Positions 7,367 to 52,110 of a stretch of 64,000 nt of DNA are shown one piece after another. The stretch is taken from positions 15,150 through 79,149 of the forward strand of contig DATCFI010000133.1 of NCBI GenBank assembly GCA_036509585.1, in the 5' to 3' direction. This DNA is from Hanamia sp. Lineage in GTDB: Bacteria; Bacteroidota; Bacteroidia; Chitinophagales; Chitinophagaceae. Below the pieces are notes generated by a model that was given only the letters and a program-made list of their open reading frames with translations, made no database searches and was not told the origin of the DNA. The number at the start of each line of letters is the position of its first letter. Position 1 is the stretch's first letter. The position numbers were made by a program, and so were the translations under genes.

Positions 7367-7484
7367 GTCATGAAGCATTTTCATTTATCATTTTAATAAT
7401 TACATTTAATCATAGACGTTACTTTAAGGTTTTTTTTGCAAATTATTTAATCAATCTTATTCGTAATTTGAAAATAGGAATGAT

Positions 7485-7568
7485 GCTTATTTATTGCTTT
7501 ACTGTAATATCCGGCTTCTGTGGGCAACGCAACAATGGTTTTTCCTTTCATGCTACTTCAATGGGAAA
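7485..7568 (+). repeat. 84-bp repeat, about 92% identical to 11370-11453 (right part of the dispersed element)
   Basis: gcttattt.ttgctttactg.aata.ccggcttctgtgggcaacgcaacaat...cttcaatgggaaa is shared by both copies. Confidence 0.9.
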
Positions 7569-7604
7569 GACAGTTTTTAAAAACAATCCTATTTATAAGA
7601 ATAT

Positions 7605-8759: not shown

Positions 8760-8857
8760 AGAGTTTGGATCGGTTCATAAACATAAACGTTTTTTTTGAA
8801 ATTATATTTCCGGTGCGGGTCCCTTTTTGGCGCGTGATACAGTTGATGAGAACGGTT

Positions 8858-8892
8858 GGGGATAGTGGTCGGCACTGAAGGTCAGACCGCGG
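8858..8892. repeat. REP-like hairpin, family D
   Basis: gatagtggtcggcactgaaggtcagaccgcgg; near-identical copies at 11202-11233 and 17481-17512. Confidence 0.8.
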
Positions 8893-8944
8893 CGACCTCA
8901 TCCGCTAATTGAAAGTTTGCAAAGAAAGCAAGAAGGGTATTGGT

Positions 8945-9010
8945 TTTAAACATAACACTTACGGATAAACGAAATATATTTGATATGGTTCGTGAGGACA
9001 CTGAGCCTGG
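8945..9010 (-). repeat. Reverse-oriented CGTTTA-N9-GTTAT site followed by a family C REP-like hairpin
   Basis: ATAAC acttacgga TAAACG aaat...atggttcgtgaggacac; homologous to 11558-11615 and 11718-11775. Confidence 0.8.
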
Positions 9011-9132
9011 CGCCGGACCCTATATCCTAAAGCAAATTCATACATTATCCATGCCTTTACCTAAGCTTTTATAACAACACTTTATTTAACGATTTTGCGG
9101 CCAGGCAACCATTTCGTAGTTAATTGCATTTA

Positions 9133-9140
9133 TACATTTG
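9133..9140 (+). promoter_or_regulatory. Bacteroidota sigma-A -7 element (TAnnTTTG)
   Basis: TACATTTG 58 nt upstream of the ATG at 9199. Confidence 0.5.
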
Positions 9141-9198
9141 TAATACTTTGAATTGAAAGACGAATGATAATCCATCATCCTTATATACATAAATACTT

Positions 9199-11148: not shown

Positions 11149-11501
11149 AATTTCTGCCTCAGTGGGTGTTCGCTGTAAACACAACCTTTCGTTGGGTAGA
11201 AGATAGCGGCCGGAACCGAAGGTCAGACCGCGGGTTAAATTGGGGGCTGCTGTCTGCTCTCCCGTTCAAAGAATACATCGGAACCTTTGTTTTAATTTTA
11301 TAGACTCTTCCATTTTTCGTTTATACTTTATTGTTATTGAAATAAATTTAAATGATAAATACAAATGTTGCTTATTTCTTGCTTTACTGAAATACCCGGC
11401 TTCTGTGGGCAACGCAACAATTGTTTTTTCTTTCATGCTGCTTCAATGGGAAAAATGAACTTTTTATTGGTGGATGCCATTGGTCATGAGACCAGACGAC
11501 G
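11148..11501. mobile_element. REPIN-like mosaic: family D hairpin, degenerate family A REP, AT-rich core with CGTTTA-N9-GTTAT, inverted family A REP
   Basis: 11148-11265 aligns with 17428-17546; core 11313-11377 aligns with 19108-19176; inverted REP gccattggtcatgagaccagacgacg at 11476-11501 matches 22955-22982 in reverse complement. Confidence 0.7.
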
Positions 11502-11871: not shown

Positions 11872-14208
11872 CTATTCCATTCCATTTCTCGGATCTCCCT
11901 TATACTTAAACTCATATTCATGCGGTGGTTCTTTTCCTAAAAGATTTTTTACAAAATAATCCCAGCGGAGCCGCACCTGGTAAATAGAATATTTTCCATA
12001 ACCATGATGGCTGTTGGGATAGATGACCAGGTCAAAATTTTTATTAGCATCCTGCAAAGCCTGCACTACAAGCAAGGTATTTTGTGGTGGTACATTGTCG
12101 TCCATCAGGCCTGCCACCAACATTAATTTCCCTTTGAGATTTTTAGCATAAGTCTGATTGGCCCCGGCAGCGTACTCACTATTGTTGATAGGTCCGTCAA
12201 AACGATCGCCCCAGTCAGATTCATAATTGCGATTATCGTGGTTGCCGGATTCAGCGATACCTACCTTAAAGAAATCCGGGTAACGGAACATAGCACCTGC
12301 TGTAGCAAAACCTCCTCCTGAATGCCCCCAGATACCGACGCGCGTGGTATCCATGTAAGAATAACGGCCGGACAATTCCCTGATTCCGGCAATTTGGTCG
12401 GGCAATGTATTAACAGACATATCACCATAACTCATGTCCTGGAAATGCTTTGTTCTTAATGGGTTGCTTGTGCCTTCAATTTGCACAACCACGAATCCTA
12501 ATTCGGCCAGCGCCTGGTTATCACCACGTGCAGGATAAAAAGACCAGCTTCCTACGCTTCCGCCCTGGGGACCCGGATAAATATAATCAATGACCGGATA
12601 TTTTTTCTGCGGATCAGGATGGAAAGGGGTAAATAGTAATCCATAAATTTCATTTTCTCCGTCTGCAGCTTTTACTTTAAAGGGAACCGGTGGTTTCCAT
12701 CCCTTTGCTTCCAACCTGGAAATGTCTGTTTTAGCTAATGTCATAACCATTTTTCCATCCGATTTACGCAATACAGTCACAGGTGGTACATCCGGCTTTG
12801 AATAACTGTCAATAAAATATTTTTGCGATGGGGAATAAGTAATATCATGATTTCCCGACTCAGGTGTGAGTATTTTAAATCCTTTACCGTCAAAATTTAC
12901 CTGGCAAAATTGAATGAAATAAGGATTTTCTGCTTCCAGTCCTGCCGCCATAAAATAAATAATGCGGGCTTTATCATCTACTTTTATTATTTGAGAAACA
13001 TCATAATTTCCATCGGTAATTTTATTTTTCAATTTACCGGTAACCGCATCATATAAATAAAGGTGATCCCAATCATCACGTTGAGAAAACCATATAAATT
13101 CATGGGATGAGGGAAGATAACGCCAGTTTACTCCACCGAATCCTGATTCAAATTGAGTAGGTACATCTTCTTCAAAAATTTCACTCACATCACCTGTCAC
13201 TGCATCTGCAATACGCACTTTTTCTGTTTTATGAAAACGGGAGGTAGAAACAAAAACCAGCTTACTTCCGTCGGGACTCCATTCTACATCCACCATTTTA
13301 CCATCAGCGGCAATATCATCCATATCTGTGGAACGGCGGGGATCAGGAGGAATTTTAAGGAATATAACTTTTGGATTATCTACATTAATAACAACACGAT
13401 ATATTTTCATTTGTGCAGTATCGCCGGGGAATTCATATTTCCATTTATCCAAATGGGGTGCGCCCACATTGGTAGATACCGAATACATATCGGTTACATT
13501 ACGCTGATCTTGCTTAAACGTAGCTATCTTTTTAGAATCAGGCGACCAGAGCAATATGGCCCCCTCACTATGCCGCCAGCTTGCATTGTCTGTGGCGTAT
13601 CCAAAATCTTCCGCGCCATCAGTTGTAAGTTGTGTCTCTTTCCCTGACGCTATATCCCGTACCCATAAATTCCAGTCTTTGATATGGGCCGCCAGCTTGC
13701 CATCAGGAGAAATAACTTCATCACTGAAATTTCTTCTGTAACGGCTCATCACAGGGGAAGATAATTTCTGATCACTTTGCGTACATTGATAACTTTCCAG
13801 GTCACACTGCCATTCTTTATCATCAGCCCGAAAAAGAATCGCCTTATTATCATCTGAATATTTAAAATATTGAAATGGCAACATACCAGATGTATAAGTA
13901 TTGCCAGTTGCTTTTGAAAGGGAAGCAGCCAGTTTTTCCTGGTCGAACGCGGGTTTGCGTGTACCTTTTTCCGGATCAATTAAAACAAAATCACTTCCTG
14001 TGGCGGTCAAATCACGAAACCAAAAATGATCACCAGAGGTCCAGTTGGGCCTTACACTTTCGTGATCTAAATATGGAGCGACGTTATAAGAAAGAAATTG
14101 CTCTGCATGAGCATAATCGCTTGTTGTCAATGAATCGGGTGATGGTTGTGCATAAACTGAAACTGTTATTGACAGCAGGATAACAGGAAAGTAAAGTTTT
14201 CGTATCAT
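11872..14208 (-). CDS. S9 family peptidase (dipeptidyl peptidase IV-like)
   Basis: Signal peptide; beta-propeller with SPDGK/WSPD repeats; GIWGHSGGG catalytic Ser, DDNV Asp and HGY His. Confidence 0.92.
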   Translation of the reverse strand: MIRKLYFPVILLSITVSVYAQPSPDSLTTSDYAHAEQFLSYNVAPYLDHESVRPNWTSGDHFWFRDLTATGSDFVLIDPEKGTRKPAFDQEKLAASLSKATGNTYTSGMLPFQYFKYSDDNKAILFRADDKEWQCDLESYQCTQSDQKLSSPVMSRYRRNFSDEVISPDGKLAAHIKDWNLWVRDIASGKETQLTTDGAEDFGYATDNASWRHSEGAILLWSPDSKKIATFKQDQRNVTDMYSVSTNVGAPHLDKWKYEFPGDTAQMKIYRVVINVDNPKVIFLKIPPDPRRSTDMDDIAADGKMVDVEWSPDGSKLVFVSTSRFHKTEKVRIADAVTGDVSEIFEEDVPTQFESGFGGVNWRYLPSSHEFIWFSQRDDWDHLYLYDAVTGKLKNKITDGNYDVSQIIKVDDKARIIYFMAAGLEAENPYFIQFCQVNFDGKGFKILTPESGNHDITYSPSQKYFIDSYSKPDVPPVTVLRKSDGKMVMTLAKTDISRLEAKGWKPPVPFKVKAADGENEIYGLLFTPFHPDPQKKYPVIDYIYPGPQGGSVGSWSFYPARGDNQALAELGFVVVQIEGTSNPLRTKHFQDMSYGDMSVNTLPDQIAGIRELSGRYSYMDTTRVGIWGHSGGGFATAGAMFRYPDFFKVGIAESGNHDNRNYESDWGDRFDGPINNSEYAAGANQTYAKNLKGKLMLVAGLMDDNVPPQNTLLVVQALQDANKNFDLVIYPNSHHGYGKYSIYQVRLRWDYFVKNLLGKEPPHEYEFKYKGDPRNGME

Positions 14209-14577
14209 GAAAGTAAATATTTTTGGACGGCTCTAAGGTATAAAAAATAAGATACAAACAATTTACCTTTTATCCTTTTCTTAATAATCAAGCGAACCAG
14301 GATAATTGCTATGTTGCCAGCGGAAGAGAGTGGCCAGGTACCAAAACCGAATACTAATGCAGGTTTCATTTTATCCAAATAGAAAAGTAAATGCTATAAA
14401 ACCCCGCTTTCTGTGGAGCCTTTTAATAATTAAAGCGCGCTATCCTTAGTTTGCAAAAGGATATTGTATTGGGCTTGCGGCTTTAAATTGCGCTTCGGCC
14501 AAAGGTAACGAACGCATCTTCAAAAAACGATAAAAAATTGTTTAACCCCTATGGATAATCATAAAATATTTCCGTTA

Positions 14578-14607
14578 TAAAAAAAGGGCCTTCCTTTCAG
14601 AAAGCCC
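14578..14607 (-). terminator. Rho-independent terminator
   Basis: On the minus strand, gggctttc-tgaaag-gaaggccc followed by a T tract, just after the 14630 stop. Confidence 0.7.
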
Positions 14608-14629
14608 ACTTAAAACTCCAGTTAAAATA

Positions 14630-14887
14630 CTATTTTGTTGAAGAACCTTTAGATGAACTTGTATCATCGTGCATATCATCATCGTGCATGGTCCCTGCCT
14701 TTTGAGCATATTTTGATGCGGCTTTTTTGCTTTGTTCGTCAGCCTTTGCCTGATGACCATTTGCAGCCATTGCATGATGCGCCGCCTTTTCATCATTTCC
14801 TTCTTTGGAATGTTTAGCAGCTTCTGTGTGATGTTTAGCGGCAGCTTCATTATGTTTGGCTGCGGCCTCGTGATGTTTTGTTGGCAT
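14630..14887 (-). CDS. Small His/Ala/Lys-rich heptad-repeat protein
   Basis: KHHEAAA KHNEAAA KHHTEAA KHSKEG repeats; A-rich start context; own terminator. Confidence 0.8.
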   Translation of the reverse strand: MPTKHHEAAAKHNEAAAKHHTEAAKHSKEGNDEKAAHHAMAANGHQAKADEQSKKAASKYAQKAGTMHDDDMHDDTSSSKGSSTK

Positions 14888-15444
14888 TTTACAATTTTTT
14901 TTAGTTAACCATGTTCAAAACAAAGCAATTGTGCTGCCACAATTTTCAACGCCGTTAGCTATTTAACAGTTAAGTCTGAAATAAGTACTTTAGCTATTAT
15001 TCGGGTATAAATATGACAAATAAATGTTTCTGTATTCTCTAAACCGGAGATATATAATTTTATTTTGTACTTGTATTCCAAAAATGCACGACGCTTTTGT
15101 AGATATTTATACTCTTGTAGACCCACTTTTGTGCGAGATGGTTGTTATTGAGTTTCCAGCGTCCGCATTTTGGCACAAGAATGATGGTCAGGAAAAGAGT
15201 GAGGGAGTTACTCTAAAAGCTTGAATTAGAGAAGGTCCTTTTAATCAATACTGAAGAGATGTGTATATTTACTTCATGAGCAATTAATCCGGAAGATTGT
15301 TAGTTTTGGATCGCGCAGGAATTTAATAACATGCAAGGATTCTTTGATTTAATTTTTATTTCATAATTATGACAAATTGTAAAAAAAACTTTATAGTAAA
15401 AAAACAAAGAAATAAATACCGCTTAAAAATATAAATGATTCATT

Positions 15445-17421
15445 ATGAAATTAAAATTAACCTTCTTATTCTTTGCCTTGTATTTAGTTCAATGCGCTTA
15501 TGCGCAAAAAGCAAAAAACTTTGATGTGCCATCGCCGGATGGAAATATCAAACTGCATGTTGAAACTTCCGGTAAAATAATATGGTCGGTAAAAGACAGA
15601 GATCAAATCATTATTGAGCCTTCGTCCATTTCATTACAATTGCAAAATGAAACGCTGGGTGATAAGGCGATAATTACTTCCTCCAAAACAGAAAAAGTAA
15701 ACAATACAATTACTGCCATCCATTATATCAAAGCAACTATTCCTGATAATTACAACCAACTCACTTTAAAATGTAAAGGAGATTATGGTTTACTATTCAG
15801 GGTTTATAATGATGCCGTTGCCTATCGCTTTTTTACAAAGAAAAAAGATAGTATCATCGTCAAGAATGAAGAAGCTAATTTCAATTTTACAAACGATGAT
15901 AGTGCGTTCATCCCCATACAATGGGATTATCGTGACGGACAAAATTTCAACTCATCATTCGAAGCGCTATATCATCACATAACGCTATCGGAATTTCCAA
16001 AAGATTCACTGGCATTTCTTCCTTTACTGGTGGATGTAGGCAATGGAAGAAAAGCAGAAATACTCGAAGCAGATCTCGAAGATTATCCCGGCATGTACCT
16101 CGATTTAAATGAAACAAACAAAGGGTTGAAAGGTGTGTATGCGCCGTATCCTGCAAAGGAATATTTGCATGGCATCAATTACATCGTGTCAGACAGGGAA
16201 GCTTATATTGCCAAAACAAGCGGCACCAAAAATTTTCCGTGGCGTATTGTTGCCATCAGTGAACAGGACAAAGATTTATTGAATAATGATATTGTGCAAA
16301 AGCTTGCATCACCACCAAGACTTACCGATTATTCATGGGTAAAACCAGGGCAGGTTTCATGGGATTGGTGGAACAACTGGAACGTTACACATGTTGACTT
16401 TCATGCAGGCATCAACACCGATACTTATAAATATTATATTGATTTTGCGGCTGCCAACAAACTGCCTTACATTATTATGGATGAAGGTTGGAGTGATGAT
16501 CTTGATCTTTTAAAAGTAAAGTCATACGATCTGAATCTGCAGGAGATTATAGATTATGGTAAACAAAAAAATGTGGGTGTTATTCTTTGGGCAACATGGT
16601 ATGCAGCTTCCCATCAGACAGACGCTGCATTTTCTACTTATTCAAAGATGGGTGTGAAAGGTTTTAAAATAGATTTCTTTGATCGCGATGACCAAAAAGT
16701 TGTTGAGTCAACTTATGCTATTGCAAAGAAAGCTGCCGAATATAAACTGATGGTTGATTATCATGGCATGTATAAGCCGACAGGCTTGCAACGAACTTAT
16801 CCAAACGTAATTGGCTTTGAAGGTGTGAAAGGTTTGGAGAATTTTAAATGGGCTGATGAAGATCAGCCGCGATACACCACCAGCATTCCTTTTATACGCA
16901 TGATGGCCGGCCCGATGGATTATACGCCAGGCGCTATGCGTAATGCAACGAAGGATGATTTCAGGCCGATTAATGGTAACCCAATGGCGAAAGGCACCCG
17001 TTGTAACCAGCTTGCTGAGTATGTTGTTTTTTACGCTCCATTGCAAATGTTGTCTGACAATCCGACAATATATATGCGTGAAAAAGAGTGTACCGATTTT
17101 ATAATACAAGTGCCTACAACATGGGATGAAACGGTACCTCTTGACGGCAAGGTCGGTGAATATGTTGCGGTGGCCCGTCGAAAAGGAAGCGATTGGTTTG
17201 TAGGTGCGATGAGCAATTGGAATGCAAGAGATATTACACTTGATTTTTCATTTCTTCCCGCAGGAAAATATACAGCCGAAGTTTTTAAAGATGGTGTAAA
17301 TGCAGATCGCAATGCAACTGATTATAAAAAGGAAATCATTACTATTTCTTCAGGCGATAAAATAAATATTCATTTGGCATCGGGTGGTGGCTGGGCAGCA
17401 AGAATAAGCAAGGCACCATAA
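15445..17421 (+). CDS. Glycoside hydrolase family 97
   Basis: Signal peptide; SPDGNI, KPGQVSWDWW, GFKIDFFDRDDQ, FEGVKGLE and GPMDYTPGA motifs. Confidence 0.93.
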   Translation: MKLKLTFLFFALYLVQCAYAQKAKNFDVPSPDGNIKLHVETSGKIIWSVKDRDQIIIEPSSISLQLQNETLGDKAIITSSKTEKVNNTITAIHYIKATIPDNYNQLTLKCKGDYGLLFRVYNDAVAYRFFTKKKDSIIVKNEEANFNFTNDDSAFIPIQWDYRDGQNFNSSFEALYHHITLSEFPKDSLAFLPLLVDVGNGRKAEILEADLEDYPGMYLDLNETNKGLKGVYAPYPAKEYLHGINYIVSDREAYIAKTSGTKNFPWRIVAISEQDKDLLNNDIVQKLASPPRLTDYSWVKPGQVSWDWWNNWNVTHVDFHAGINTDTYKYYIDFAAANKLPYIIMDEGWSDDLDLLKVKSYDLNLQEIIDYGKQKNVGVILWATWYAASHQTDAAFSTYSKMGVKGFKIDFFDRDDQKVVESTYAIAKKAAEYKLMVDYHGMYKPTGLQRTYPNVIGFEGVKGLENFKWADEDQPRYTTSIPFIRMMAGPMDYTPGAMRNATKDDFRPINGNPMAKGTRCNQLAEYVVFYAPLQMLSDNPTIYMREKECTDFIIQVPTTWDETVPLDGKVGEYVAVARRKGSDWFVGAMSNWNARDITLDFSFLPAGKYTAEVFKDGVNADRNATDYKKEIITISSGDKINIHLASGGGWAARISKAP

Positions 17422-19067: not shown

Positions 19068-19176
19068 GCCGCCGTCTGGTCTCCCGACCAACAAAATTGA
19101 TTTCCACATTTTCGTTTATGCTTCTCAGTTATTGAATAATAAATTTAAATTATAAAATACAAATGTTGCTTATTTG
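19068..19176 (+). repeat. Family A REP plus 69-bp AT-rich core, identical to 23064-23132
   Basis: attttcgtttatgcttctcagttattgaataataaatttaaattataaaatacaaatgttgcttatttg occurs at 19108-19176 and 23064-23132. Confidence 0.95.
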
Positions 19177-22954: not shown

Positions 22955-23165
22955 GCCGCCGTCAGGTCTCATGACCAATGGCTGACAAGGGCAAAGTTTT
23001 TCACCTTTTATTTTATAAAGAATTTTACTGAAGTAGGTTGGTATGTTTCAAATTCTTTCTCCAATTTTCGTTTATGCTTCTCAGTTATTGAATAATAAAT
23101 TTAAATTATAAAATACAAATGTTGCTTATTTGTGTAAACCTGTTTTAAGGCAAGACAAGAAGGGA
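22955..23165 (+). repeat. Family A REP, linker and AT-rich core
   Basis: gccgccgtcaggtctcatgaccaatggc at 22955; linker and core are homologous to 32340-32490, 52015-52110 and 54720-54855. Confidence 0.9.
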
Positions 23166-23304: not shown

Positions 23305-23574
23305 CTATCTGGCCATAGAAATAATTTTTTCAAGGTTAGGAATTGCCATTATGCCATTAGCATCGCGATAATCAATAATTAAAATATCTCCCGTTTTTTG
23401 GAAACGGTAGTGTTTGCCGGTAATGCTCCCTACAGCAGTGAGCGAAGTTTTACCTTGATATCTAAAACTTACATCCTCCCACATTTTTGGTGGTACATAT
23501 CGAGTGGCTTTTTGAGGCAAATTGTTTTTTGCAAGTTGAACATACCCTGCTCTTTTGGAGCCGCAGTTGCACAT
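23305..23574 (-). CDS. Small hypothetical protein with N-terminal CxCG
   Basis: MCNCGSKR...VSFRYQGKTSLTAVGSITGKHYRF...IDYRDA...IPNL; last gene of a co-directional cluster. Confidence 0.75.
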   Translation of the reverse strand: MCNCGSKRAGYVQLAKNNLPQKATRYVPPKMWEDVSFRYQGKTSLTAVGSITGKHYRFQKTGDILIIDYRDANGIMAIPNLEKIISMAR

Positions 23575-23666
23575 AAATTAAAATTTTATTTTTTTTAAAA
23601 AGGCACTATCAATAAACTAAATAAAAAAATAGTAAGAAGTGGAATAAAATTACAAAATGAATAACA

Positions 23667-23990
23667 TCAATTTTCTTCCTCTTCAAGATAAATGGGTTCA
23701 TCAGATTTATTATTTTTCCTGTCGGTTGCTTTTTCCAATAAACAAGCTGCACCTGATAAGGCAATCCATAATAACAATTTTTCACGCCAACTATTCCCTT
23801 CCCATAACCCAAAGGGCAATGCCACCCAAACGCTTGTGCAGTAAAAGCAATCGAGCAGGCTCCCGAAGAAGTCCGCTCCTATTGCTTTTCTTAAACGATA
23901 GATGATATCAAAGGGGCCGTCTTCTTTTGAGAACAGATGCGTGATACGCCAGATGGCTAAAGAAAGAACAATAAAATAAAACACATTCAT
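23667..23990 (-). CDS. DUF1360-like membrane protein
   Basis: LAIWRITHLFSKEDGPFD...LLDCFYCTSVWVA (CxxC) with hydrophobic segments. Confidence 0.75.
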   Translation of the reverse strand: MNVFYFIVLSLAIWRITHLFSKEDGPFDIIYRLRKAIGADFFGSLLDCFYCTSVWVALPFGLWEGNSWREKLLLWIALSGAACLLEKATDRKNNKSDEPIYLEEEEN

Positions 23991-24060
23991 ACTAATTACC
24001 GTAATTTAAAAAGAAGACTACGGCAGTCTTTAAAAACTACCATAGTCTTTTGTTGATTTA

Positions 24061-26373
24061 TCATGGCTCCAATGCAAATGCCGTTACCTGGTATGGGGCA
24101 TCATTTGCTGTAACACGATAAGTGCCATCAGTTGCTATGGCAATTACAGATAAAGTTTCTGCAAATGCAGCTTTACCAGTTCCATCATGATAACAGGCGC
24201 CCAATAATTGTGCAGGTGTAAAATGCTTATCATATAAACCACTGGCCAACTTGTATGAGTAAACCAGAGGGAGTAATGACAAGTACGTGCTGTCAATAAC
24301 CATCCCGCTGGTATCTGCTATAGAAACGCCTCCACAGGTTCCTTCGTTGACATTAAAACTAAATACGGCAAAATTGTTGGACTGTATTGCCAGGAAGGAT
24401 AAATCAAGATCTGCATCCACTCCCCCAAGTTTGTATTTCACAAATCCACAACAGTTTAATGATGCCGGCGTCCCATTTACATTCACAGTAAAAATACCTG
24501 CAGCACACTTAGAGTTATCAATCCGCATCAGAATATTAAATGCATTCGCAGTAGTGGGCGTTGGGTTTTCCAGTAACCCATCCGGTGCATTTACACTAAA
24601 GTCTGCATCGTTATAATCCGGTATTTTGAAAGTAGCTTTTGGAATATTTGTCAAAAGATTTCCTGCTTTATCAAATAATTGCAACTCGAATTCATAAAGC
24701 CCGTCACCACCGGCCATAGTACCATTCTTCAATTGTGTTGAATCAAAATTCATTGTATTCATATAATATGTCTGCTCCTGCCATAGAGGGCTTGTTTCAG
24801 GCACACTAAAGGGCGCCATGTTAGGTTGCACCGGAGGTATAATATACAAATTATCATTGGTGCCTATGGTAAAAGGGCCAAGTTTTACACTGTTAGCTCC
24901 AAATTGTGTATCGCCGTGAGAATCTATATAGGTGTATTCATACCCTTTATTTACCGCACCTCCTATTGGTAGCAGCGCTTTATAACTATCAGTTACAGGA
25001 AGTAACTGTGCGTTTGCAATTTGTTTGTACCTCCAGCGATAATAATAAATCCCTGTATTGGGAAGATCGCTTCCAAAACCCATATACAAATAAGAAGAAC
25101 TTCCCCCAAACGGGCGCTTATAATCACCAACAGAAGTTAGGAAAAAATCATCATAGATAGCTGAAGCATCTGTGAGGCCTATCCTGTCGTAGCCAACCAA
25201 TTGCCCGGGAGGAGGTTGTAAATAACTTGTCTGGTTAATATGCGCAACACTGGTTGAGCCCACTGTTCTTATCCAAACTAATTCACCGGGTATCGGACAA
25301 TCACAACAACAATTTCCCGGCACACGTGAATCTGTTATCTGAATATTAATATTAGTGCCACAGGCATAATCCCAAAAAGTATTGCATGGAATCGGGGGAT
25401 TATAAACAGTTGTCCATGCGCCATTAATCATATATTCCACCCATATATAAATATCCGGCTTGTCGCCAAAACACCAATACGAAACATTAGAATCAAAGCG
25501 TCCGTTAGCATCTGTATAAACAACAGCTAACTCTTTGCAACGATAAAAATAAGGCCACCACCAGGGCCATAAACAAAACCAGGGATGGAGGATTGCGTAA
25601 TTCTTTGCAATTGTATCTCTGATTAAATTCAAATTATCTGATGCTAAATTTTGTCTGATGTCTATTCCTAATTCAGGCAATGAAGCAGCAGTGGCCATTT
25701 GTATTTCTTCTGCAGATTGAGTGTTAAATATATTTTGAGAACGAAGTGACGCTGCAGAACTTAATTCATTACTAACAAAAGGCGATGGATCAGGAACGGG
25801 AATAGGAAATTTGATAATTTCATTTGGGTTCAAAATGGCTTCCGGAATTTTTGCAATAATATAATCCGGTATCCGGTAGATCCACCACAAAATTGAATCT
25901 ACCTCGCAGATGTGCACTCTCGCCCTGCATACAGAACGATCAACCCACCTGTTGCCAACCTGAAACCATTTGGAAACTTTGCCCGTTACCCGGCAATTGC
26001 AAAATGGCCAGAATTGTGAAATAGCCGATGGGATGGGGAGGATAGAAAGCTTATTGTCTTTTTCAACATTTAAAATTGGCTCATAAGGTTTATAATTTTC
26101 CAGTTCTTCAATGCTTGTAACGTTTTGAACATTCTGATCTGTTGCAGGAGCAATAAACACCCGTAATTCACCTGGGGTGATATTTTTTTGTTGTGCCTGA
26201 AGATTTTTGTTTTTTTCTTTGCTCAGATCAAATTCCAATAAATTGTTTTTTATTAATTGTGATTGAAGCAAAATACCTCTGCAAGTAAAAAGAAAACCAA
26301 TAATTGAAATTTCCTTTTCGAGAGGTGTTTCAAAACTTATGGGGATTGAAATTTTTTTTATTTCTTGTGCCAT
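24061..26373 (-). CDS. 770-aa Cys/Trp-rich hypothetical protein
   Basis: Long ORF with about 19 Cys (FCNC, NCCCDC, NCCG); TDANGRF...KPDIYIWVE prealbumin-like segment; no signal peptide. Confidence 0.85.
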   Translation of the reverse strand: MAQEIKKISIPISFETPLEKEISIIGFLFTCRGILLQSQLIKNNLLEFDLSKEKNKNLQAQQKNITPGELRVFIAPATDQNVQNVTSIEELENYKPYEPILNVEKDNKLSILPIPSAISQFWPFCNCRVTGKVSKWFQVGNRWVDRSVCRARVHICEVDSILWWIYRIPDYIIAKIPEAILNPNEIIKFPIPVPDPSPFVSNELSSAASLRSQNIFNTQSAEEIQMATAASLPELGIDIRQNLASDNLNLIRDTIAKNYAILHPWFCLWPWWWPYFYRCKELAVVYTDANGRFDSNVSYWCFGDKPDIYIWVEYMINGAWTTVYNPPIPCNTFWDYACGTNINIQITDSRVPGNCCCDCPIPGELVWIRTVGSTSVAHINQTSYLQPPPGQLVGYDRIGLTDASAIYDDFFLTSVGDYKRPFGGSSSYLYMGFGSDLPNTGIYYYRWRYKQIANAQLLPVTDSYKALLPIGGAVNKGYEYTYIDSHGDTQFGANSVKLGPFTIGTNDNLYIIPPVQPNMAPFSVPETSPLWQEQTYYMNTMNFDSTQLKNGTMAGGDGLYEFELQLFDKAGNLLTNIPKATFKIPDYNDADFSVNAPDGLLENPTPTTANAFNILMRIDNSKCAAGIFTVNVNGTPASLNCCGFVKYKLGGVDADLDLSFLAIQSNNFAVFSFNVNEGTCGGVSIADTSGMVIDSTYLSLLPLVYSYKLASGLYDKHFTPAQLLGACYHDGTGKAAFAETLSVIAIATDGTYRVTANDAPYQVTAFALEP

Positions 26374-26446
26374 GTTATTTTATTTAATAATAGTTAATAA
26401 TAAAGTACTTTGGTTTAAATAGAGTTTGGATTAAAGAACGATCTAT

Positions 26447-27769
26447 TTAATCAGCTATCACCTGCGCAGGCGGGCAACATCTGTATTCCTGTGATTTTTC
26501 CAGCAACTGAATTTGTTTGCGCAGTAAATCGTTTTGCAACTGTAGATTTTCTTTTACTTCCGGTTCGCATACACAGCAATCATCTAAGCAGCCTTTCACT
26601 ATAATACCGGATGTGGGTAAAGAAAACTCCTGCTCAAAACTTATTTTGCTCTTAATTGAGTTAGAAGCCTTGCCACTTGAGTCTAACAAACCTTCAGTTA
26701 ATAATTGTTGATCCACCTGGGCAAGAGCAGCATTGCGAATGGCAGCAGAAATTGGCGCGGCAGCCTGAAATTGCGCTGCAGCCTGGCTGAAGCCAAATGT
26801 ATTTCCTGCTATGTCAGTCCCCGCAGTCAACAATTCGGCATTGGTAAAAACTTTGCTGGTTGCGGGCATTTCTTGTGGAACTACTGCTACTGCTGATTTT
26901 AATGTGGGTAAATACAATGGCCTGCGAACAGGTGCTACCGGATCCAGCACCCTTCTTTCAATTTCTACCAGTTCATAAGTTATTTTTTGTTTTTTATTAA
27001 GGCGATAAAAAATAAAAGTAATCGCATGGCAATGATTGGGATTAGAAAATTGTCTTGAAGAAGCCTCATACTGATCTTCAGATTCGGTAGCAACATGAGT
27101 TCTTGAAGATACTTCACCGATTGAAATTGAATGGGCCTTTTGCGTTTCTCCCACAGACTGCGTAGCCGAACCCTGCGCTTGTGATCTTTGCTCGTTCAGA
27201 TAATCCGAAACCGATTTACTGTTGTGGCTGCCGTTGGCATTTGTGCTGGCATCTGCAGAACCTCCAAATAAACTGATGCCGACACTGCCGTGTGCATCAC
27301 CATTAAAATCCCAGTTGCCCGAATCGCTGCTGGTAGCACTTCCGGATTGGGAGTTAGCTCCATCAGTAACATAGTTTTGCAAGGCAGTCATATAATATTG
27401 TTCTTCAGAAATTTGCTCGCTTCTTGTACTGATCTGAGTTTCACTATCTAAAGTAAAACGGCTCTTGCGATCTGTTGATTGGAGGTTTACCTTTTCTCCC
27501 GGCAACAATGTAGTACTGTATGCCGGATCTCCAAGTGTAAGTCCCAGCGTACATCTTGTGAATTTAAAATGTAGCACCACTTCCACCGTAAGCTGCTGTG
27601 AAGGTGTGTTGGCTGCAGCCGGCAAAGTGACGGGATAATTGAGAATTCGCTTATACTGAAAGATATCGCAATGATTGTCTTTGATAAGATCAGGGCAACA
27701 GGGAATTGTTACACCGTCGCCACTTGTGGCATTACCCGATGGTTGGGTTTTTGAATTTTCTTTAGGCAT
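26447..27769 (-). CDS. 440-aa hypothetical protein with Ser/Thr/Gly-rich core and Cys clusters
   Basis: TTLLPGEKV and FSNPNHCHAITF motifs; CC pairs at both termini; C-terminal coiled coil; no signal peptide. Confidence 0.85.
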   Translation of the reverse strand: MPKENSKTQPSGNATSGDGVTIPCCPDLIKDNHCDIFQYKRILNYPVTLPAAANTPSQQLTVEVVLHFKFTRCTLGLTLGDPAYSTTLLPGEKVNLQSTDRKSRFTLDSETQISTRSEQISEEQYYMTALQNYVTDGANSQSGSATSSDSGNWDFNGDAHGSVGISLFGGSADASTNANGSHNSKSVSDYLNEQRSQAQGSATQSVGETQKAHSISIGEVSSRTHVATESEDQYEASSRQFSNPNHCHAITFIFYRLNKKQKITYELVEIERRVLDPVAPVRRPLYLPTLKSAVAVVPQEMPATSKVFTNAELLTAGTDIAGNTFGFSQAAAQFQAAAPISAAIRNAALAQVDQQLLTEGLLDSSGKASNSIKSKISFEQEFSLPTSGIIVKGCLDDCCVCEPEVKENLQLQNDLLRKQIQLLEKSQEYRCCPPAQVIAD

Positions 27770-27933
27770 AAAAAATGATTTTTAATGTGAAAAGTGATTT
27801 TTTTATTTCCTCAGGCTGCTTCGTTGTTTTAGAAGCGGAGGATAAAAAGGTGAAAGATTTTATGCTTTAATTTTACTTTCAATAATTTTTCTGAAATCAT
27901 CAGATCCTTTCAGATGTATTATTTTATGACTAT

Positions 27934-29067
27934 TTATGCTGGCCAATTGGATCTACCCCATGCACAGAGATTCACAAATCCGTTGCCACTTGCAAATACA
28001 TTATCGTTTCGCGACGAGAAGGGGAATTTATATTCAGTTTCCTGTCCGCTTACTACGCCCACGATCCTTGGGTCAGTTCCACTATTCCACCAGGCAAACA
28101 TGGGGCCTCCTGAATTACCGTGATTGAGGTCACAATTTTCAGTTTCTAATTCTTCTCCTCCATCACTATCTCCATCCGTATCATTTATTGTAAAGCCTTG
28201 CTGAAATGCAGGTTCTTCAGCATTATCTATGTCGCCGGGATAACCAATATTACTCCAGTACGGCTGATTATTCCAATCATCCGAATAACTATTATAACCC
28301 ATATAGCCGAGTGAGGAACCTAATGGTTCATACAAACGCAAAACTGCCCAATCGTATCCTGTAACATTTCCATCTGTATTATACCCACGTGCATCGGAAA
28401 CATAAGATTCTACACCAGCACCATATAGCGAGCTTCCATTAAAGTAAGCGGGAACAAATTTAACCCACCAGCTTCCTGCTGATACGCTTGCCCATGGTAC
28501 CATGTGGCCTGCCGTTACAACAAGCCTGGGGCCAATAAGAGTACCTGTTCCGCTATATCCATCACTGTTAAAAATGCGGCCGACTAATCCCCATGGCCAT
28601 GCACTATCTTCAAATGCGAAACGCGCACTGTCATAAACCCAAAGAGGCTCAGAACGGTTTCCCTTAAATCTGCGCATGGGTTGAATAGTGTTCCCTGCTT
28701 TAATACGCGGGACAGGCGATACATCTATCCATTCGGGTCTGTGCGACTTGAAAGAAACGTCTTTTTTAATTTCCTTAAGATATTTGGAGGCAGGATGTCT
28801 TTCCAATGTAAGCCCCGGCCGTGCTCCTCTTAAATTATCATCAACCGGAACATTGATTCTCCATATATCGTGTCCTGCTTTATGCATTGATTCAATATCT
28901 ACCACAGGTTTTTTACCAGCTTTCGACTCTATATAGATAGAACGTTGCATTGCCATTCTTTTTAAGGCTTCGGGAATTTTTCCATTTCCTGATATAGCAC
29001 GCTGTCTCCTTACTTTGGTTAATGGAGTTGGTGAGGCATGGTCCCCAATAAAATGATTTGTTGCCAT
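27934..29067 (-). CDS. Trypsin-like (S1, glutamyl-endopeptidase-like) serine protease with N-terminal prodomain
   Basis: Catalytic triad VTAGH, YDWAVL, GNSGGP; no signal peptide. Confidence 0.9.
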   Translation of the reverse strand: MATNHFIGDHASPTPLTKVRRQRAISGNGKIPEALKRMAMQRSIYIESKAGKKPVVDIESMHKAGHDIWRINVPVDDNLRGARPGLTLERHPASKYLKEIKKDVSFKSHRPEWIDVSPVPRIKAGNTIQPMRRFKGNRSEPLWVYDSARFAFEDSAWPWGLVGRIFNSDGYSGTGTLIGPRLVVTAGHMVPWASVSAGSWWVKFVPAYFNGSSLYGAGVESYVSDARGYNTDGNVTGYDWAVLRLYEPLGSSLGYMGYNSYSDDWNNQPYWSNIGYPGDIDNAEEPAFQQGFTINDTDGDSDGGEELETENCDLNHGNSGGPMFAWWNSGTDPRIVGVVSGQETEYKFPFSSRNDNVFASGNGFVNLCAWGRSNWPA

Positions 29068-29097
29068 TACTTTATTTTTTTCGCCTACTCTTTGATC

Positions 29098-29367
29098 GGA
29101 TTTTCGGCTTATTCCTTTTATTTATTAATAATACTTCAATGATTTATTATTAGTGATTTATAGGATTGGAGCGTAACCTTTTTTTGTAGTCAAAAACATG
29201 CCCAACACAAAAAATAATTATCCGAAACCGTTAACAAGCGCATTTCATGTATAGGTGCTTTTTAGTAAATGGCTTAAAAACGGAGATACCCGGTGAGGAA
29301 TGTCTATGGAAAAATCATTAATAAAATAGAGAAGTTTTTGACTTTCATTAATGCGAGAAAAATAATC
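29098..29367 (-). repeat. Duplicate of 31237-31522 (LytTR gene 3' end plus downstream regulatory region)
   Basis: Conserved blocks ggattttcggctta, ataatacttcaatgattt, tataggattg, ccgttaacaagcgc and tggaaaaatcattaataaaatagagaagtttt. Confidence 0.9.
29245..29367 (-). pseudogene. LytTR C-terminal remnant
   Basis: DYFSRINESQKLLYFINDFSIDIPHRVSPFLSHLLKSTYT* is 31/40 identical to the end of the 31400-31849 protein; no ATG start. Confidence 0.8.
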
Positions 29368-29417
29368 CGCCAAAGCCACAATTCTTTGACGGATTACCTT
29401 TGTTACTATTGCATAAT

Positions 29418-31142
29418 TTACACTCCTTTTCCTGATAATTCAAGAGACTTACGTTTTGCTTTTTTTCCTTTATTATCATCACCTTTTGTAGCATCATCCA
29501 CAGCCGGAGAAACTAATTCACTTTGTTTTATCCTTTGCTCATGAATTTCTGATCCAAGTTTTTGTAACTCGCGTATGCCATTCAAAACCATCGTGCGGGC
29601 TTCATTTGCCTGCCTAGCATACTTTGGGCCCCAGGGGTCCACAGGAATCGGGCCATTAGGTCCTAATACCCACAACGGGCCATCAGCAAGGCTTCCAATC
29701 AATTGATTCCATATCTCATATTGCTCAAAAACCTTAATATATGGTGGCCACCAGAATATATCCCAAATATAAATGTAATGGCTGTAGGAGCTTATTCCGT
29801 TTGCAATTAATGTGATCTCATAAGAACCCAAAGGAACCCCGGAAGGAACATAAAAATTAGTAGAATGAATAGTTGTACCTGTATTAACTCCCATAGTACT
29901 ATGATCAAATGTTTTGCAGAAATAGACTTTACCTGTAGAGATATTTGTCAACTTTACAATTGGATAATTGGTAGCCGAGGAAACGTCATCTCCATAGGCC
30001 ACTGCCTGTGATAATCCATTTATTTGACGCCCCTGAAGTGTATAAGATTGGCCATGTCTTACAAAGTAAGGTATGTTGGTAATTGCCGGCCTCCATGATT
30101 CATCAGGATAGCCATCGGGGACATAGCAATAAATTGAATTTGAACCATTGGCAAATAATACCTGGCCCGAAGGTGTGAGCATCATTCTGCCGGCAAACGG
30201 AACACTACCCGAGTTGGCAGGGTCTGGTACTCTGTATATTGATCTACCGTCAAACTCATAGAAATAGGTAGGTGAAAGATAGTCCCCGGAAACCCCATCA
30301 ACAGGGCCGCCCACAAATAATACTTTGCCATTTGGCATTAAACATCCGGGAGCATCTTTTGCACCGATAGTTACACCTCCTACTTTGGGAATATCAGGGC
30401 CGGTTGTCCACGTTCCTGCAGCGCTGGAAACAACAGGAGGTGTGTAAATAGCAGTTTTGCCTGTTGCTCCAACGCAAAAAACTCTTCCATCGGGCATCAG
30501 GCATGCAGGGCCAATTTCAATAGATGAAGCTTCTACTAGATCAACCGGTATGGTGCCTGCAGTAACCCAATTATTTGCTGCGATAACATATTTTTCCGAA
30601 TTAGGATGGTTAACGCATTGTGCGGCTAATACGGTTTCATCCGGTAACAAAGTCCAGGTTTCTTCAGAAGCTGAATCGCCCTTATTGGGTCCTGCATTCC
30701 ATGTATTAGTCGCAGGGTCAAAGATGGCAGTTTTATTACCGTTATAATAACCCATCAGAAAACGCCCGTCAGGCAAAACACAACAGGCAGCATCTCCAAC
30801 ATTAGTCCAACCGGCCGGCGCAGCTATTGCAGTCCATGTGTCCGTAAGAGGATTATAAATTTCACACTTATTAGTATCGCCTCCTGCATTACTATATTCC
30901 CCACCACAAACAATCACACGGCCATCACGTAAAACTGCGGATGCAAAATAAAGCCTTGTGTTAATCATTGGAGCAAGAGCGCTCCATGTCCCATTTATGT
31001 AATTTCCACCTGAATCAGGCGTAAGGCGATGCCAGTTCAGACCGCCGGATTCCTGGCACATAATGGTACCATCGGTTAAAAGTAACATAGTGCTTGCATT
31101 AAAAGTGGGTTGATGCGTCAGCCCTTTCCAAATTCCGCTCAT
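29418..31142 (-). CDS. Kelch/galactose-oxidase-type beta-propeller protein with Ig-like domain and Pro/Gly-rich tail
   Basis: Repeats LRDGRVIVCGG...EIYNPLTDTWT, LPDGRFL...IFDPATNTWNAGP and MPDGRVFCVG; no signal peptide. Confidence 0.85.
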   Translation of the reverse strand: MSGIWKGLTHQPTFNASTMLLLTDGTIMCQESGGLNWHRLTPDSGGNYINGTWSALAPMINTRLYFASAVLRDGRVIVCGGEYSNAGGDTNKCEIYNPLTDTWTAIAAPAGWTNVGDAACCVLPDGRFLMGYYNGNKTAIFDPATNTWNAGPNKGDSASEETWTLLPDETVLAAQCVNHPNSEKYVIAANNWVTAGTIPVDLVEASSIEIGPACLMPDGRVFCVGATGKTAIYTPPVVSSAAGTWTTGPDIPKVGGVTIGAKDAPGCLMPNGKVLFVGGPVDGVSGDYLSPTYFYEFDGRSIYRVPDPANSGSVPFAGRMMLTPSGQVLFANGSNSIYCYVPDGYPDESWRPAITNIPYFVRHGQSYTLQGRQINGLSQAVAYGDDVSSATNYPIVKLTNISTGKVYFCKTFDHSTMGVNTGTTIHSTNFYVPSGVPLGSYEITLIANGISSYSHYIYIWDIFWWPPYIKVFEQYEIWNQLIGSLADGPLWVLGPNGPIPVDPWGPKYARQANEARTMVLNGIRELQKLGSEIHEQRIKQSELVSPAVDDATKGDDNKGKKAKRKSLELSGKGV

Positions 31143-31399
31143 AATAAATGAAATTTATTTTGCCTACTCTAATTTCCCTTTTCGGCTTTCCGGGCGCTTA
31201 CTCTCTTTAATTGCTTTCTATAGTCAATTGCAAAATGGATTTTCGGCTTACTCCTTTTTATTTATAAATAATACTTCAATGATTTGCTATTGGTATTTTA
31301 TAGGATTGCAAGGAAATTTTTATTGTAGTAAAAAACATCCTTAACCCGAAAGTATAATTACAGGAAGCCGTTAACAAGCGCTTTTTCGTAAAGCGCATT

Positions 31400-31849
31400 T
31401 CACGTATGGGTACTTTTTAGTAAATGGCGTACAAAGGGAGATATCCGGTGAGGAATGGCAATGGAAAAATCATTAATAAAATAGAGAAGTTTTTTATTTT
31501 CATTGATGTGGGAAAAATAATTCAGATTAAGGAGGTAGAATTTATTGAGACGTATAAAATTTTCTACAGGTAAAATGTAAAGCAATTCTTTAAGAGTGCT
31601 ATGCCTTGTCATCCATTTTAGTTTATTACCGCAATTAATCAGTGTTTTCACATAATGATCAGCGCTTATTACAAAGTATATTTCATCAGGATGGGCCCAG
31701 GTGTACTTTTCTTTTTTTTCTTCAAAACGTAAGAATTCTATACTCTTTTCCCGGGTGCCGGTCGTGTTGGGCAATGTTATCAGATTTCTTTGGGGAGAAT
31801 TCAGTTTGTTTACTAATTCATCATTAAAAAGGTAAGTGTTGATGCGCAT
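31400..31849 (-). CDS. Stand-alone LytTR DNA-binding domain regulator
   Basis: DEIYFVISADHYVKT...TLKELLYILPVENFIRLNKFYLLNLNYF; no receiver domain. Confidence 0.8.
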   Translation of the reverse strand: MRINTYLFNDELVNKLNSPQRNLITLPNTTGTREKSIEFLRFEEKKEKYTWAHPDEIYFVISADHYVKTLINCGNKLKWMTRHSTLKELLYILPVENFIRLNKFYLLNLNYFSHINENKKLLYFINDFSIAIPHRISPFVRHLLKSTHT

Positions 31850-32339: not shown

Positions 32340-32490
32340 GCTAACAAGTGTTTTTACTTTTATTTTATAAGTAATTTTACTATGGTGCTTCGTGTATTTT
32401 CGTTTATGCTTTCCTGTTATTGAAAAATAAATTTGAATTATAAAATACAAATGTTGCTTATTTGTGTAAACTTATTTTAGAATAAGACAA
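32340..32490 (+). repeat. Linker and AT-rich core, homologous to 22981-23160
   Basis: attttCGTTTA tgctttcct GTTATtgaaaaataaatttgaattataaaatacaaatgttgcttatttgtgtaaac...aagacaa. Confidence 0.9.
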
Positions 32491-32685: not shown

Positions 32686-33457
32686 TCACCCTTCCGGCCC
32701 CGGGCTCACCGCAGTCCATCCGCCATCTATGACAAGCGATTGGCCGGTTATATGTTTTGCTTTATCGGAAATGAGAAAAAGAGCCGCATTGGCAATATCC
32801 AAAGTCGTAGCGGGATGCCCCATTGGCGTCAGGGTCGACCATACTTTTTCATAGTTTACATCATCCATCGTTCTTTCTGTAAGAGTTGCTCCAGGGGGCT
32901 ACCGTGTTTACGTTGATCTTATAAGGCGAGAGTTCTAACACCAGGTTTTTGGCAAGCATTTCGAGAGCAGCCTTCGTCATGCCATAGGCTGCAAGGTTTT
33001 TATGAGCCTGGTGCCCGGTAACGGAGGAGGTAAATAACAACGATCCACCGGAACCTTGTTGAATCATTTGATTCGCTGCCGCCTGTGCGAGAAAAAAAGT
33101 TCCTGCCAGGTTTACCTTTACTACCTCAAAAAAAGAAGAAGCGGGATAAGTAAGGAAGTCTCCAAACAGGGTAATGCCCGCATTTGCTACCACTACATCT
33201 AATTTGGAAAATTTATCCACTGCCGTAGCTACCATTTTTTTTATGATATCAGGGTTAGAAGCATCTCCGGCAACGCCAAGACAAGTACCTCCTTCCAACG
33301 ATATTTTCGTGACCGCTTTCATGGAGAGATTGGAATCAATATCATTCAAAACTACTTGTGCACCTTTTGTAGCAAGTTGTTTTGCTATTTCAAATCCAAT
33401 TCCCTGGCCGGCTCCGGTTACGATGGCCACTTTTTGGTAAAATTCTTTTATCTCCAT
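32686..33457 (-). pseudogene. SDR oxidoreductase split by a +1 frameshift
   Basis: TGAGQGIG, ANAG and YGMTK motifs; removing one G from the G5 run at 32894-32898 restores VAPGATLTERTMDD...TGQSLVIDGGW. Confidence 0.85.
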
Positions 33458-48024: not shown

Positions 48025-48135
48025 CATTTTATTTTATACTCCTCTTTCCCACATTTTCGTTTATGCTTTTCTGTTATTGTTGAATGAATTCAAATTATTA
48101 AATACAAATGGCACTTAATTGTTGGTTTACTGTAA
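48025..48135 (+). repeat. AT-rich core repeat copy
   Basis: ttttattttata...cacattttCGTTTA tgcttttct GTTATt...aaatacaaatg...tttactgtaatg. Confidence 0.8.
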
Positions 48136-52014: not shown

Positions 52015-52110
52015 TCCAATTTGGAAATTAAATTTTACTGAAGAAGTGTGGTTTCTTTTAAAATCTTATTTCCGTTTATGCTTTACTGTTATCAAAAATA
52101 GATTTATTAA
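52015..52110 (+). repeat. Linker and truncated core repeat copy
   Basis: aattttactgaag...tggtttcttttaaaatctt...cCGTTTA tgctttact GTTATc; tggtttcttttaaaatctt is shared exactly with the 54.77 kb copy. Confidence 0.75.

Follow-up and report, generated by a model that had tools for sequence, protein, structure and literature searches.

Type I restriction systems have, in the hsd 'immigration control' region, a fixed locus with unrelated specificity alleles, and the Iet system pairs an AAA ATPase, IetA, with a subtilisin-like protease, IetS. HdrR and BrsR are stand-alone LytTR regulators, and the DUF1360 family includes a Bacillus sporulation membrane protein. We present here a gene cassette that resembles parts of each of these, found in a 64-kb stretch of DNA from Hanamia sp. 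(contig DATCFI010000133.1; the whole stretch is hereafter the window), within a block of seven genes at 23305-31849. The four downstream genes of the block encode conserved proteins labelled A, B, C, and D; the three upstream genes encode a LytTR protein, a kelch protein, and an S1 protease. The block is very probably a composite, made up of the four-gene core A-B-C-D and lineage-level add-ons, with flanking repeats that are not specific to it. The core is a real and apparently undescribed cassette, and it is of a new kind by exclusion, as no known family, system, or fold matches it. A, B, and D are well-conserved "dark" families without domain annotation, solved relative, or literature record, and the four-gene core, the exchange of a large subunit at a fixed locus, a fusion of A with a B-slot domain, and several cultivable carriers provide comparative handles on them.

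The block contains seven open reading frames (ORFs), all on the minus strand. Short spacers of 73, 70, and 92 nucleotides (nt) separate the genes within A-B-C-D, and those of the upstream add-ons are longer (164, 350, and 257 nt). Pfam scans returned LytTR (E value 1.5e-7), Kelch_6 (1.3e-11), Trypsin (7.5e-8), and DUF1360 (7.5e-6) domains, and with the ORF calls they bear out the seven minus-strand genes and the domains named in a first-pass annotation made from the sequence alone. A (440 amino acids, aa), B (770 aa), and D (89 aa) had no match in Pfam or NCBIfam, and scans of the seven block proteins against NCBIfam, PADLOC, and PHROGs yielded nothing specific beyond the four known domains. 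Nothing was found for A, B, C, or D among the catalogued anti-phage systems of PADLOC-DB v2, where the sole match was a weak one of the S1 protease domain to RT-Protease_XI (E value 0.0014), and PHROGs matches were limited to generic domains. A tblastn search of A and B against 50,697 phage records gave no match, and a search of IMG/VR gave no A or B homolog. By hydropathy scan, C alone among the seven proteins has a transmembrane-like segment, and none of the six soluble proteins has a signal-type hydrophobic N terminus; no type IX secretion system (T9SS) C-terminal domain family appears among the Pfam matches of the seven. Both results uphold the earlier observation that the soluble proteins carry no Sec signal or T9SS C-terminal domain. 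The Cys tallies then given as about 11 and 19 were counted as 11 in A and 19 in B, and the MCNCG N terminus of D and the Cys motif of the small membrane protein C (CFYC) were confirmed. The statement that no function had been published for this gene set agrees with our searches, and literature searches for DUF1360 and DUF805b yielded nothing useful.

For comparison, 80 species-representative genome loci holding A were fetched, along with loci reached via individual homologs, and scanned with the seven window proteins. The comparison set consists of 84 other loci (A is present in 81), with co-occurrence taken within 10 kb. C is present in 48 of the 84 loci and D in 47, always just downstream and with D directly after C, and the C/D-bearing loci all belong to Bacteroidota. 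In almost all Chitinophagaceae loci, A and C are separated by an ORF of ~755 to 790 aa. LytTR, kelch, and S1 homologs are found in none of the 84, so the conserved unit is four genes and not seven. The first-pass proposal of one system of seven genes acquired as a unit is therefore not supported, since A-B-C-D is the only part that recurs; the gene-neighborhood search suggested at that time did reveal a co-occurring core, but the LytTR, kelch, and S1 genes stand outside it.

Dozens of bacteria from soil and freshwater carry the cassette, and soil metatranscriptome contigs that are 85 to 95% alike span D, C, B, A, and S1. Cultivable carriers of the core include Ferruginibacter paludis CECT 8366, Niabella pedocola JCM 31011, Terrimonas pollutisoli, Thermoflavifilum thermophilum DSM 14807, and Methylomonas albis. 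At 27 loci the cassette is flanked by one recurring pair of genes, ispG/gcpE and the gene for a 532-aa FAD_binding_2 flavoprotein, which we take to be L-aspartate-oxidase-like; many Chitinophagaceae inherit it at this one fixed chromosomal site. The window lineage, which comes from a peat metagenome, carries it at a different place. Three loci contain A-C-D without any B. A occurs without C or D in Methylomonas, Methylotenera, Acidobacteria, and Ignavibacteria, and it is present by itself in Proteobacteria and Acidobacteria; in Methylomonas, A is kept alone after transfer into Gammaproteobacteria. Metal-related neighbors include a heavy-metal P-type ATPase gene in Niabella and a gene like those for low-molecular-weight protein tyrosine phosphatase (LMW-PTP) and ArsC in Methylomonas, and some loci have an ArsR-type regulator and a lactamase_B-rhodanese protein encoded a few kilobases upstream. 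Upstream of A, a comparison of 73 loci found no shared operator recognizable as a regulator box, only an AT-rich leader (TTAAC.ATTAAA) and local hairpins, and a scan for sigma-70 promoters, with a model that is not informative for Bacteroidota, gave no excess over shuffled sequences. A strong 16-bp hairpin with a T-run, terminator- or attenuator-like, lies between B and C (24014-24049, minus strand). In Methylomonas defluvii (L031, 11348-12126), a window-type B is decaying to fragments of 150 and 108 aa behind an intact A, and in M. albis (L001), B is wholly gone and A is retained.

The position between A and C, the B slot, is occupied in the window by protein B (24061-26373, minus strand), defined from its ORF and 313 homologs. 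B consists of consecutive beta-sandwich domains, has a helical insert, and carries a Pro-rich segment, PIPVPDPSPF, at residues 192 to 201. Its AlphaFold2 (AF2) model has a predicted local distance difference test (pLDDT) score of 79, and a Foldseek search of the model against PDB and BFVD matched only generic immunoglobulin (Ig)-like multidomain arrays, with a TM-score of ~0.1. Elsewhere the B-slot ORF belongs to one of two families unconnected by BLAST, fam4 (the window type, about 25 times) and fam6 (also about 25 times). A third family, fam12 (~715 aa), adjoins A in Methylophilaceae, in Kapaibacterium, and in two Chitinophagaceae-related loci. Both of the major families occur at the flavoprotein-ispG site, 14 and 12 times. 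The identity of A is 71% across B types, compared with 75% and 66% within types; because A is about equally alike in either comparison, the B slot has been exchanged on a conserved A/C/D background. The alternative B-slot proteins gave no family match and no PADLOC match. The two families share only local homology, at about residues 150 to 200 around the Pro motif (hhalign E value 0.0027), and the motif ends the shared region, as PIPxPDPPPF and, in the second family, as NPxPPDPxPxF. It is present in 24 of 25 members of the one family, in variant forms throughout the other, and in 1 of 682 other proteins, and the shared Pro-rich region coincides with a low-confidence loop of the B model. Cys residues 31, 355, 356, and 359 of B are lost jointly in 9 of 115 homologs, a pattern of sequence change which suggests that the quartet behaves like one metal site.

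In having conserved partners at one site and one component swapped among BLAST-unconnected families, the cassette is like the hsd region. Unlike that region, it contains no nuclease, methylase, or ATPase domain, and the resemblance is one of population logic only.

Protein A (26447-27769, minus strand), the conserved core of the cassette, was defined from its ORF, homologs, and their alignment. A word-indexed search returned more than 1946 homologs, mostly 57 to 63% identical, across Chitinophagaceae and Methylomonas, and the family forms 626 representative clusters at 50% identity and reaches at least four phyla, between which A is 47 to 60% identical. Every homolog of A and of B is annotated as "hypothetical protein." A consists of a beta-rich N-domain with the motifs LGxxLGxxxYSxxLxPGExVxL ... 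RxFxNxNxxH, a variable low-complexity linker (residues ~280 to 340), and a C-terminal domain with GCLDxCxxCEP and a coiled coil; CC pairs stand at both ends, and a CX3CX2C motif is also present. Within the close family, ten Cys residues show little or no variation. Among 152 full-length members, C34 and C73 are both present in 145 and both absent in 7, with no discordant case, and for C25 and C394 the corresponding numbers in the family are 136, 10, and 3. Distant members have lost most Cys residues and kept the remainder of the protein.

The AF2 model of A (pLDDT 58) combines helices with four or five long beta strands and has a small C-domain and, at its terminus, a coiled coil; it leaves a conserved Ser/Gly/Asp/His-rich segment unmodelled. 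A Foldseek search with this low-confidence model gave nothing significant, the best matches being pore-state toxins at an E value of 0.44. Single-chain modelling of the kind proposed at first pass was carried out for both A and B, and neither model gave a specific fold match. Sequence and profile searches of PDB with A and with B found nothing, and 47 members of the A family had no domain match in family libraries at E values up to 10. One A-family protein, P0331, begins with a fused copy of the N-terminal domain found in the second B family, an arrangement that argues for a physical association of A with the B-slot proteins.

More distantly, an A-like domain lies inside two giant plasmid proteins of 1206 and 1338 aa (hhalign probability 96%, E value 1e-9), which are 35% identical to each other. 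They are encoded, in that order, on the SNP1 megaplasmid of Streptomyces nigrescens (L099, 7344-10964) and on the conjugative plasmid2 of Nostoc carneum (L098, 7281-11297). A plasmid search with A and B found only these distant A-like domains, no relative of B was found inside the giant Nostoc protein, and scans of the long A relatives against Pfam, NCBIfam, PADLOC, and PHROGs added no further family. The Nostoc giant gene is followed by that of an AAA ATPase matching the PADLOC IetA models at 2.4e-19. YpsA-SLOG and HNH genes are nearby in Nostoc, and the plasmid table carries no annotation for the Streptomyces ORF. The likeness to Iet is therefore twofold, in that a distant A-like domain adjoins an IetA-like ATPase and a serine protease accompanies the window cassette. 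The differences are that the window has no ATPase, that its protease is of trypsin fold, and that the Nostoc locus is a single one.

Protein C (23667-23990, minus strand; 107 aa) is a DUF1360-type small membrane protein, matching PF07098 over residues 40 to 86 at 26.3 bits against a cutoff of 21 and phrog_781 at 3e-8. It carries the motifs WRxTHL and DCFYC and an acidic tail. Protein D (23305-23574, minus strand), a small soluble protein, begins with M-C-N-C-G or M-x-C-C-G followed by K-R and has a conserved beta-type core, YRF...GD...DYRDA; 10 close homologs were found in a search bounded by the word index. One of these, an orphan D homolog (L097, 10001-10261; 70% identical), stands beside DDE transposase genes on a 5.17-Mb contig, without A, B, or C, and is probably the remnant of a cassette disrupted by insertion sequences.

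Our best explanation as a whole, a composite block with a core that encodes an assembly with a role in conflict, is offered tentatively and as somewhat short of probable; its mechanistic part, the swappable-subunit assembly with a conflict role, is slightly more doubtful. In this mechanism, A would be the invariant core of a multi-subunit, membrane-associated assembly, an oligomer made of a sheet of long beta strands and the C-terminal coiled coil and held by the coupled Cys pairs. The B-slot protein would be an exchangeable recognition or specificity subunit that presents an Ig-like array and docks via the conserved N-terminal module and the Pro-rich PxPxPDPPPF segment. C may anchor the assembly in the cytoplasmic membrane, and D may bridge to the CFYC motif of C through its N-terminal Cys pair next to Lys-Arg. 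Upstream of the cassette, the window lineage has gained a cytosolic trypsin-fold protease and a stand-alone LytTR protein, of which, in this mechanism, the first would process A or B and the second would control expression; the most recent arrival is the kelch gene, recombined in between two ~280-nt copies of the LytTR 3' end and leader.

A conflict role, in defense or antagonism rather than in metabolism or housekeeping, is favored by the exchange of unrelated B alleles at a fixed locus, by the spread of A across phyla, by the facultative attachment of a cytosolic protease and a LytTR regulator, and by the A-like domain beside an IetA-like ATPase on the Nostoc plasmid. The evolutionary regime leans towards a conflict-type function. 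A structural reading is kept alive by the Ig-like arrays, the coupled Cys residues, and the constancy of the cassette from genus to genus.

Several points weigh against the conflict assembly. Its core proteins match no defense model in PADLOC, no phage or viral sequence, and no specific solved fold. The same content is found at the same site across many genera, a pattern unusual in defense islands and more suggestive of a structural or physiological function common to the lineage. The A-B and C-D contacts are inferred from co-occurrence, one fusion, and motifs, and the pLDDT of 58 makes the predicted oligomeric beta-sheet core of A weak. Most loci have no protease, so proteolysis is no general step, and the IetA-like neighbor belongs to a single locus with a distant A relative. 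That A-B-C-D is a new multi-protein conflict machine, with A as a membrane-associated oligomer of new fold and B as an interchangeable recognition subunit, fixed at one chromosomal site in Chitinophagaceae and with its core spread to Proteobacteria, Acidobacteria, and Ignavibacteria, seems unlikely to us. Should the cassette prove to encode a new system of defense or antagonism, or a new structure inside the cell or in its envelope, bacterial cell biology would gain a module of a new kind; otherwise, the analysis still strikes the seven-gene "system" and its "flanking repeats" off the list of supposed islands.

The alternative that survives best, though also unlikely, is a self-assembling, Cys-stabilized body or coat, in which A and B would assemble, on or close to the membrane, into a lattice, sheath, or inclusion and C and D would serve as assembly or redox factors. 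By analogy with spore-coat and exosporium proteins or with R-bodies, it might act intracellularly or after lysis; we know of no report of such a structure for these taxa. The extreme conservation of A across phyla and its coiled coil fit this proposal, as does the paired loss of its Cys residues, which disulfides would show, and Ig-like beta-sandwich arrays such as that of B are typical of structural and surface proteins. The position of the cassette is fixed family-wide, and relatives are transcribed in soil. Set against these are the lack of an export signal, with no oxidizing compartment evident, the joint loss of the B quartet, which suits a metal site over disulfides, and the replacement of B by unrelated families, which is odd for a lattice component. 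The first-pass hypothesis of disulfide-crosslinked self-assembly is compatible with the coupled Cys-pair loss, the Ig-like array of B, and the coiled coil of A, but the Cys quartet in B points as much to a metal site as to disulfides. The likeness to Bacillus spore-coat and exosporium proteins is a lead only: the cassette proteins are leaderless, Cys-rich, and encoded beside a gene for a DUF1360-type membrane protein, but A, B, and D show no coat-protein similarity, and the hosts are not known spore formers.

A protease-activated pore or toxin, the other function suggested at first pass, is improbable. It would have S1 cut the A linker or the Pro-rich loop of B and free a membrane-active N-domain, with the kelch protein as sensor. 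A cytosolic protease with an intact triad does lie directly upstream of A, and in one related contig (L088) upstream of B; A has the order of N-domain, variable disordered linker, and C-domain; and its AF2 model has very long beta hairpins, with pore-state toxins as the best, non-significant Foldseek matches (E values of at least 0.44). This arrangement is like that of gasdermin-protease operons, in which a cytosolic protease adjoins a signal-less protein with N-domain, linker, and C-domain (here A). Unlike in those operons, the protease is not conserved beside the putative effector (0 of 84 loci), and A often stands alone. A and B have no sequence similarity to gasdermins or pore formers and no significant fold likeness (again with the low-confidence model of A), there is no PADLOC match, and S1 homologs lie in unrelated contexts in other phyla. 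The kelch gene is very recent and absent from sister loci, and its product therefore cannot be the sensor of the system. The gasdermin-like proposal did not hold up on these grounds.

We consider equally improbable a leaderless bacteriocin or anti-eukaryote toxin released by lysis, with A as the killing protein, B binding a receptor, C as an immunity or holin-like protein, and LytTR as regulator. LytTR regulators classically control bacteriocins in Gram-positive loci, the variation in the B slot resembles receptor-binding diversity, C has a size and topology like those of small immunity or holin proteins, and A has moved between phyla. The cassette is, however, near-universal at one site across genera instead of strain-variable, and it has no lysis enzyme or export gene and no toxin domain by Pfam, NCBIfam, or PADLOC. 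A also persists in genomes lacking C, where immunity would be missing. Least likely of all is a metal or redox module that stores, senses, or detoxifies metal or reactive sulfur through vicinal Cys residues (CC, CCCDC, CFYC, and CNCG) binding soft metals or Fe-S, since, for all the conserved Cys clusters in the four core proteins (with CX3CX2C in A), the single-site behavior of the B quartet, and the metal-type neighbors in some genera (P-type ATPase, ArsR-type regulator, and LMW-PTP/ArsC-like), the distant A members have lost most Cys residues and keep the rest of the protein, the neighbors reflect genus-specific synteny and are not conserved partners, and such a module offers no evident place for an exchangeable Ig-like protein of 760 aa.

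The three add-on genes encode ordinary members of known families. The LytTR DNA-binding protein (31400-31849, minus strand; 149 aa) matches PF04397 over residues 53 to 136 at 32 bits against a cutoff of 22.6. Pfam found no receiver domain (Response_reg) in it, and it is not a response regulator of the AgrA/ComE type. A stand-alone LytTR gene heads the gene set here and in the related contig L087, as in HdrR/BrsR systems; unlike in those, no adjacent membrane inhibitor was identified, and the regulator is absent from most cassettes. The kelch beta-propeller protein (29418-31142, minus strand; 574 aa) matches Kelch_6 at 44.5 bits (cutoff, 25.3) and Kelch_1 at 40.7 bits (cutoff, 20.1), and its PDB matches are designed and natural kelch propellers. 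Assignment as a radical copper oxidase of the GlxA/galactose oxidase type was rejected, as the NCBIfam match reached 25.9 bits against a cutoff of 800 and covered the C-terminal domain only. The S1 trypsin-fold serine protease (27934-29067, minus strand; 377 aa) belongs to peptidase family S1 (Trypsin, 32.9 bits against 20.6; Trypsin_2, 30.8 against 27.6). It has a ~150-aa N-terminal extension without a signal peptide and intact catalytic triad motifs (TAGH188, D239WAV, and GNS319GGP), and its nearest solved relative is the glutamyl endopeptidase 1P3C. Homologs of S1, extension included, are 62 to 74% identical in high-GC contigs (L092-L096; GC content, 0.54 to 0.64) with unrelated contexts, and the S1 gene moves between phyla by itself. 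In L093 the homolog adjoins genes for a hemopexin-repeat protein and a beta-propeller protein.

All seven genes occur together only in near-identical relatives. Three metagenome contigs (L085, L086, and L091) are ~94% identical to the window and share its flanks: an ilvD-like dehydratase and a short-chain dehydrogenase/reductase (SDR) at one end, and NmrA, SDR, aldo-keto reductase, and AraC at the other. In addition, these contigs have a BlaI/BlaR pair next to D. The genes called in the syntenic locus L085 include no integrase or transposase. A further sister contig, L090, has LytTR-S1-A-B-C-D with one copy of the 285-nt internal direct repeat (see below) and no kelch gene, and a contig of metagenome run X10 joins 29119 to 31332, skipping the kelch gene. 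On the strength of these two cases, the kelch gene either entered recently by recombination or was later lost again, and its presence is polymorphic in nature. S1 adjoins B-C-D in L088, and L089, with the same context, has no upstream partner. L087 has LytTR, an unrelated 1016-aa protein, and then B-C-D. This protein (6844-9894), in the A position, has a Cys-rich C terminus and no family match; the possibility that it is a hidden A homolog was rejected by profile comparison.

The add-ons carry their own leaders with a DUF805b-type RNA motif. The motif (Rfam RF02914; 29082-29117, minus strand; 39.4 bits against a gathering cutoff of 35.6, E value 1e-7) lies 15 nt upstream of the S1 start codon, and it has the same place in L085 (7257-7292) and L090 (2503-2538). 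In L087 (12940-12975), it follows D and precedes a 100-aa ORF. Weak or degenerate copies stand upstream of the kelch gene (31161-31189 and 31237-31254, minus strand). Three exact AAGCCGAAAA boxes are confined to the S1 and kelch leaders, and the sequence signature of the leaders is AAGCCGAAAA...AGAGTAGGC. The motif is here associated with genes other than DUF805.

A pair of internal direct repeats, overlooked at first pass, brackets the kelch gene alone. Copy 1 (29098-29366, minus strand) consists of a LytTR 3' remnant, 77.5% identical to LytTR residues 110 to 149, and the intergenic leader, and copy 2 (31237-31521, minus strand) consists of the 3' end of the intact LytTR gene and the kelch leader. 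The copies are ~280 nt long and 81 to 89% alike.

The repeats that had been taken to flank the block exist, at 22994-23158 (the right-hand one) and 32346-32490 (the left-hand one), both on the plus strand and 83 to 88% alike by nucleotide comparison, but they are not specific to it. BLAST found at least eight copies of their ~70- to 140-nt core in the window (11309-11377, 19094-19176, 23064-23158, 32396-32490, 48043-48122, 52031-52120, 54720-54855, and 62087-62161), all intergenic and all on the plus strand whatever the orientation of the neighboring genes. The core sequence is ATTTTCGTTTATGCTTTACTGTTATTGAA.AATAAATTTAAATTATAAAATACAAATGTTGCTTATTTGT. It matches no Rfam family; candidates include an element like a miniature inverted-repeat transposable element and a small RNA. 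With a copy about every 8 kb, a spacing of 9.3 kb between two of them is the chance expectation, and because the repeat is a dispersed family it is no evidence on the acquisition of the block, contrary to the first-pass interpretation. The block is not bounded by specific terminal repeats of its own. No block-less (empty-site) contig was found in four metagenomes, and an apparent 9351-nt joint in runs X3 and X4 was rejected as an empty site, being an artefact of short contigs inside the repeat.

Similarity to the sister contigs changes sharply at ~26790, inside gene A. To the left of this point as the genes are read (S1, kelch, LytTR, and their flank), the window is ~95 to 99% identical to L090 and L085, and to the right (3' part of A, B, C, D, and the NmrA-side flank), it is ~85 to 88% identical. 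Protein identity to the sister contigs is 99% for S1, 89% for B, 73% for C, and 65% for D, and the coverage of run X4 at 90% likeness drops at ~26790. This position is a recombination breakpoint within a species-level population.

Two further differences between the window and L085 were observed outside the block. In L085, an extra Zn-ribbon gene and a BlaI/BlaR pair (Penicillinase_R/Peptidase_M56) lie between D and the NmrA-like gene (13370-15924); this insertion adjoins a copy of the dispersed repeat, and the window does not have it. At 32686-33457 (minus strand) in the window, a short-chain dehydrogenase is split into ORFs of 198 and 60 aa, which is a frameshift, a pseudogene, or an assembly error; the protein is intact in L085, at 256 aa.

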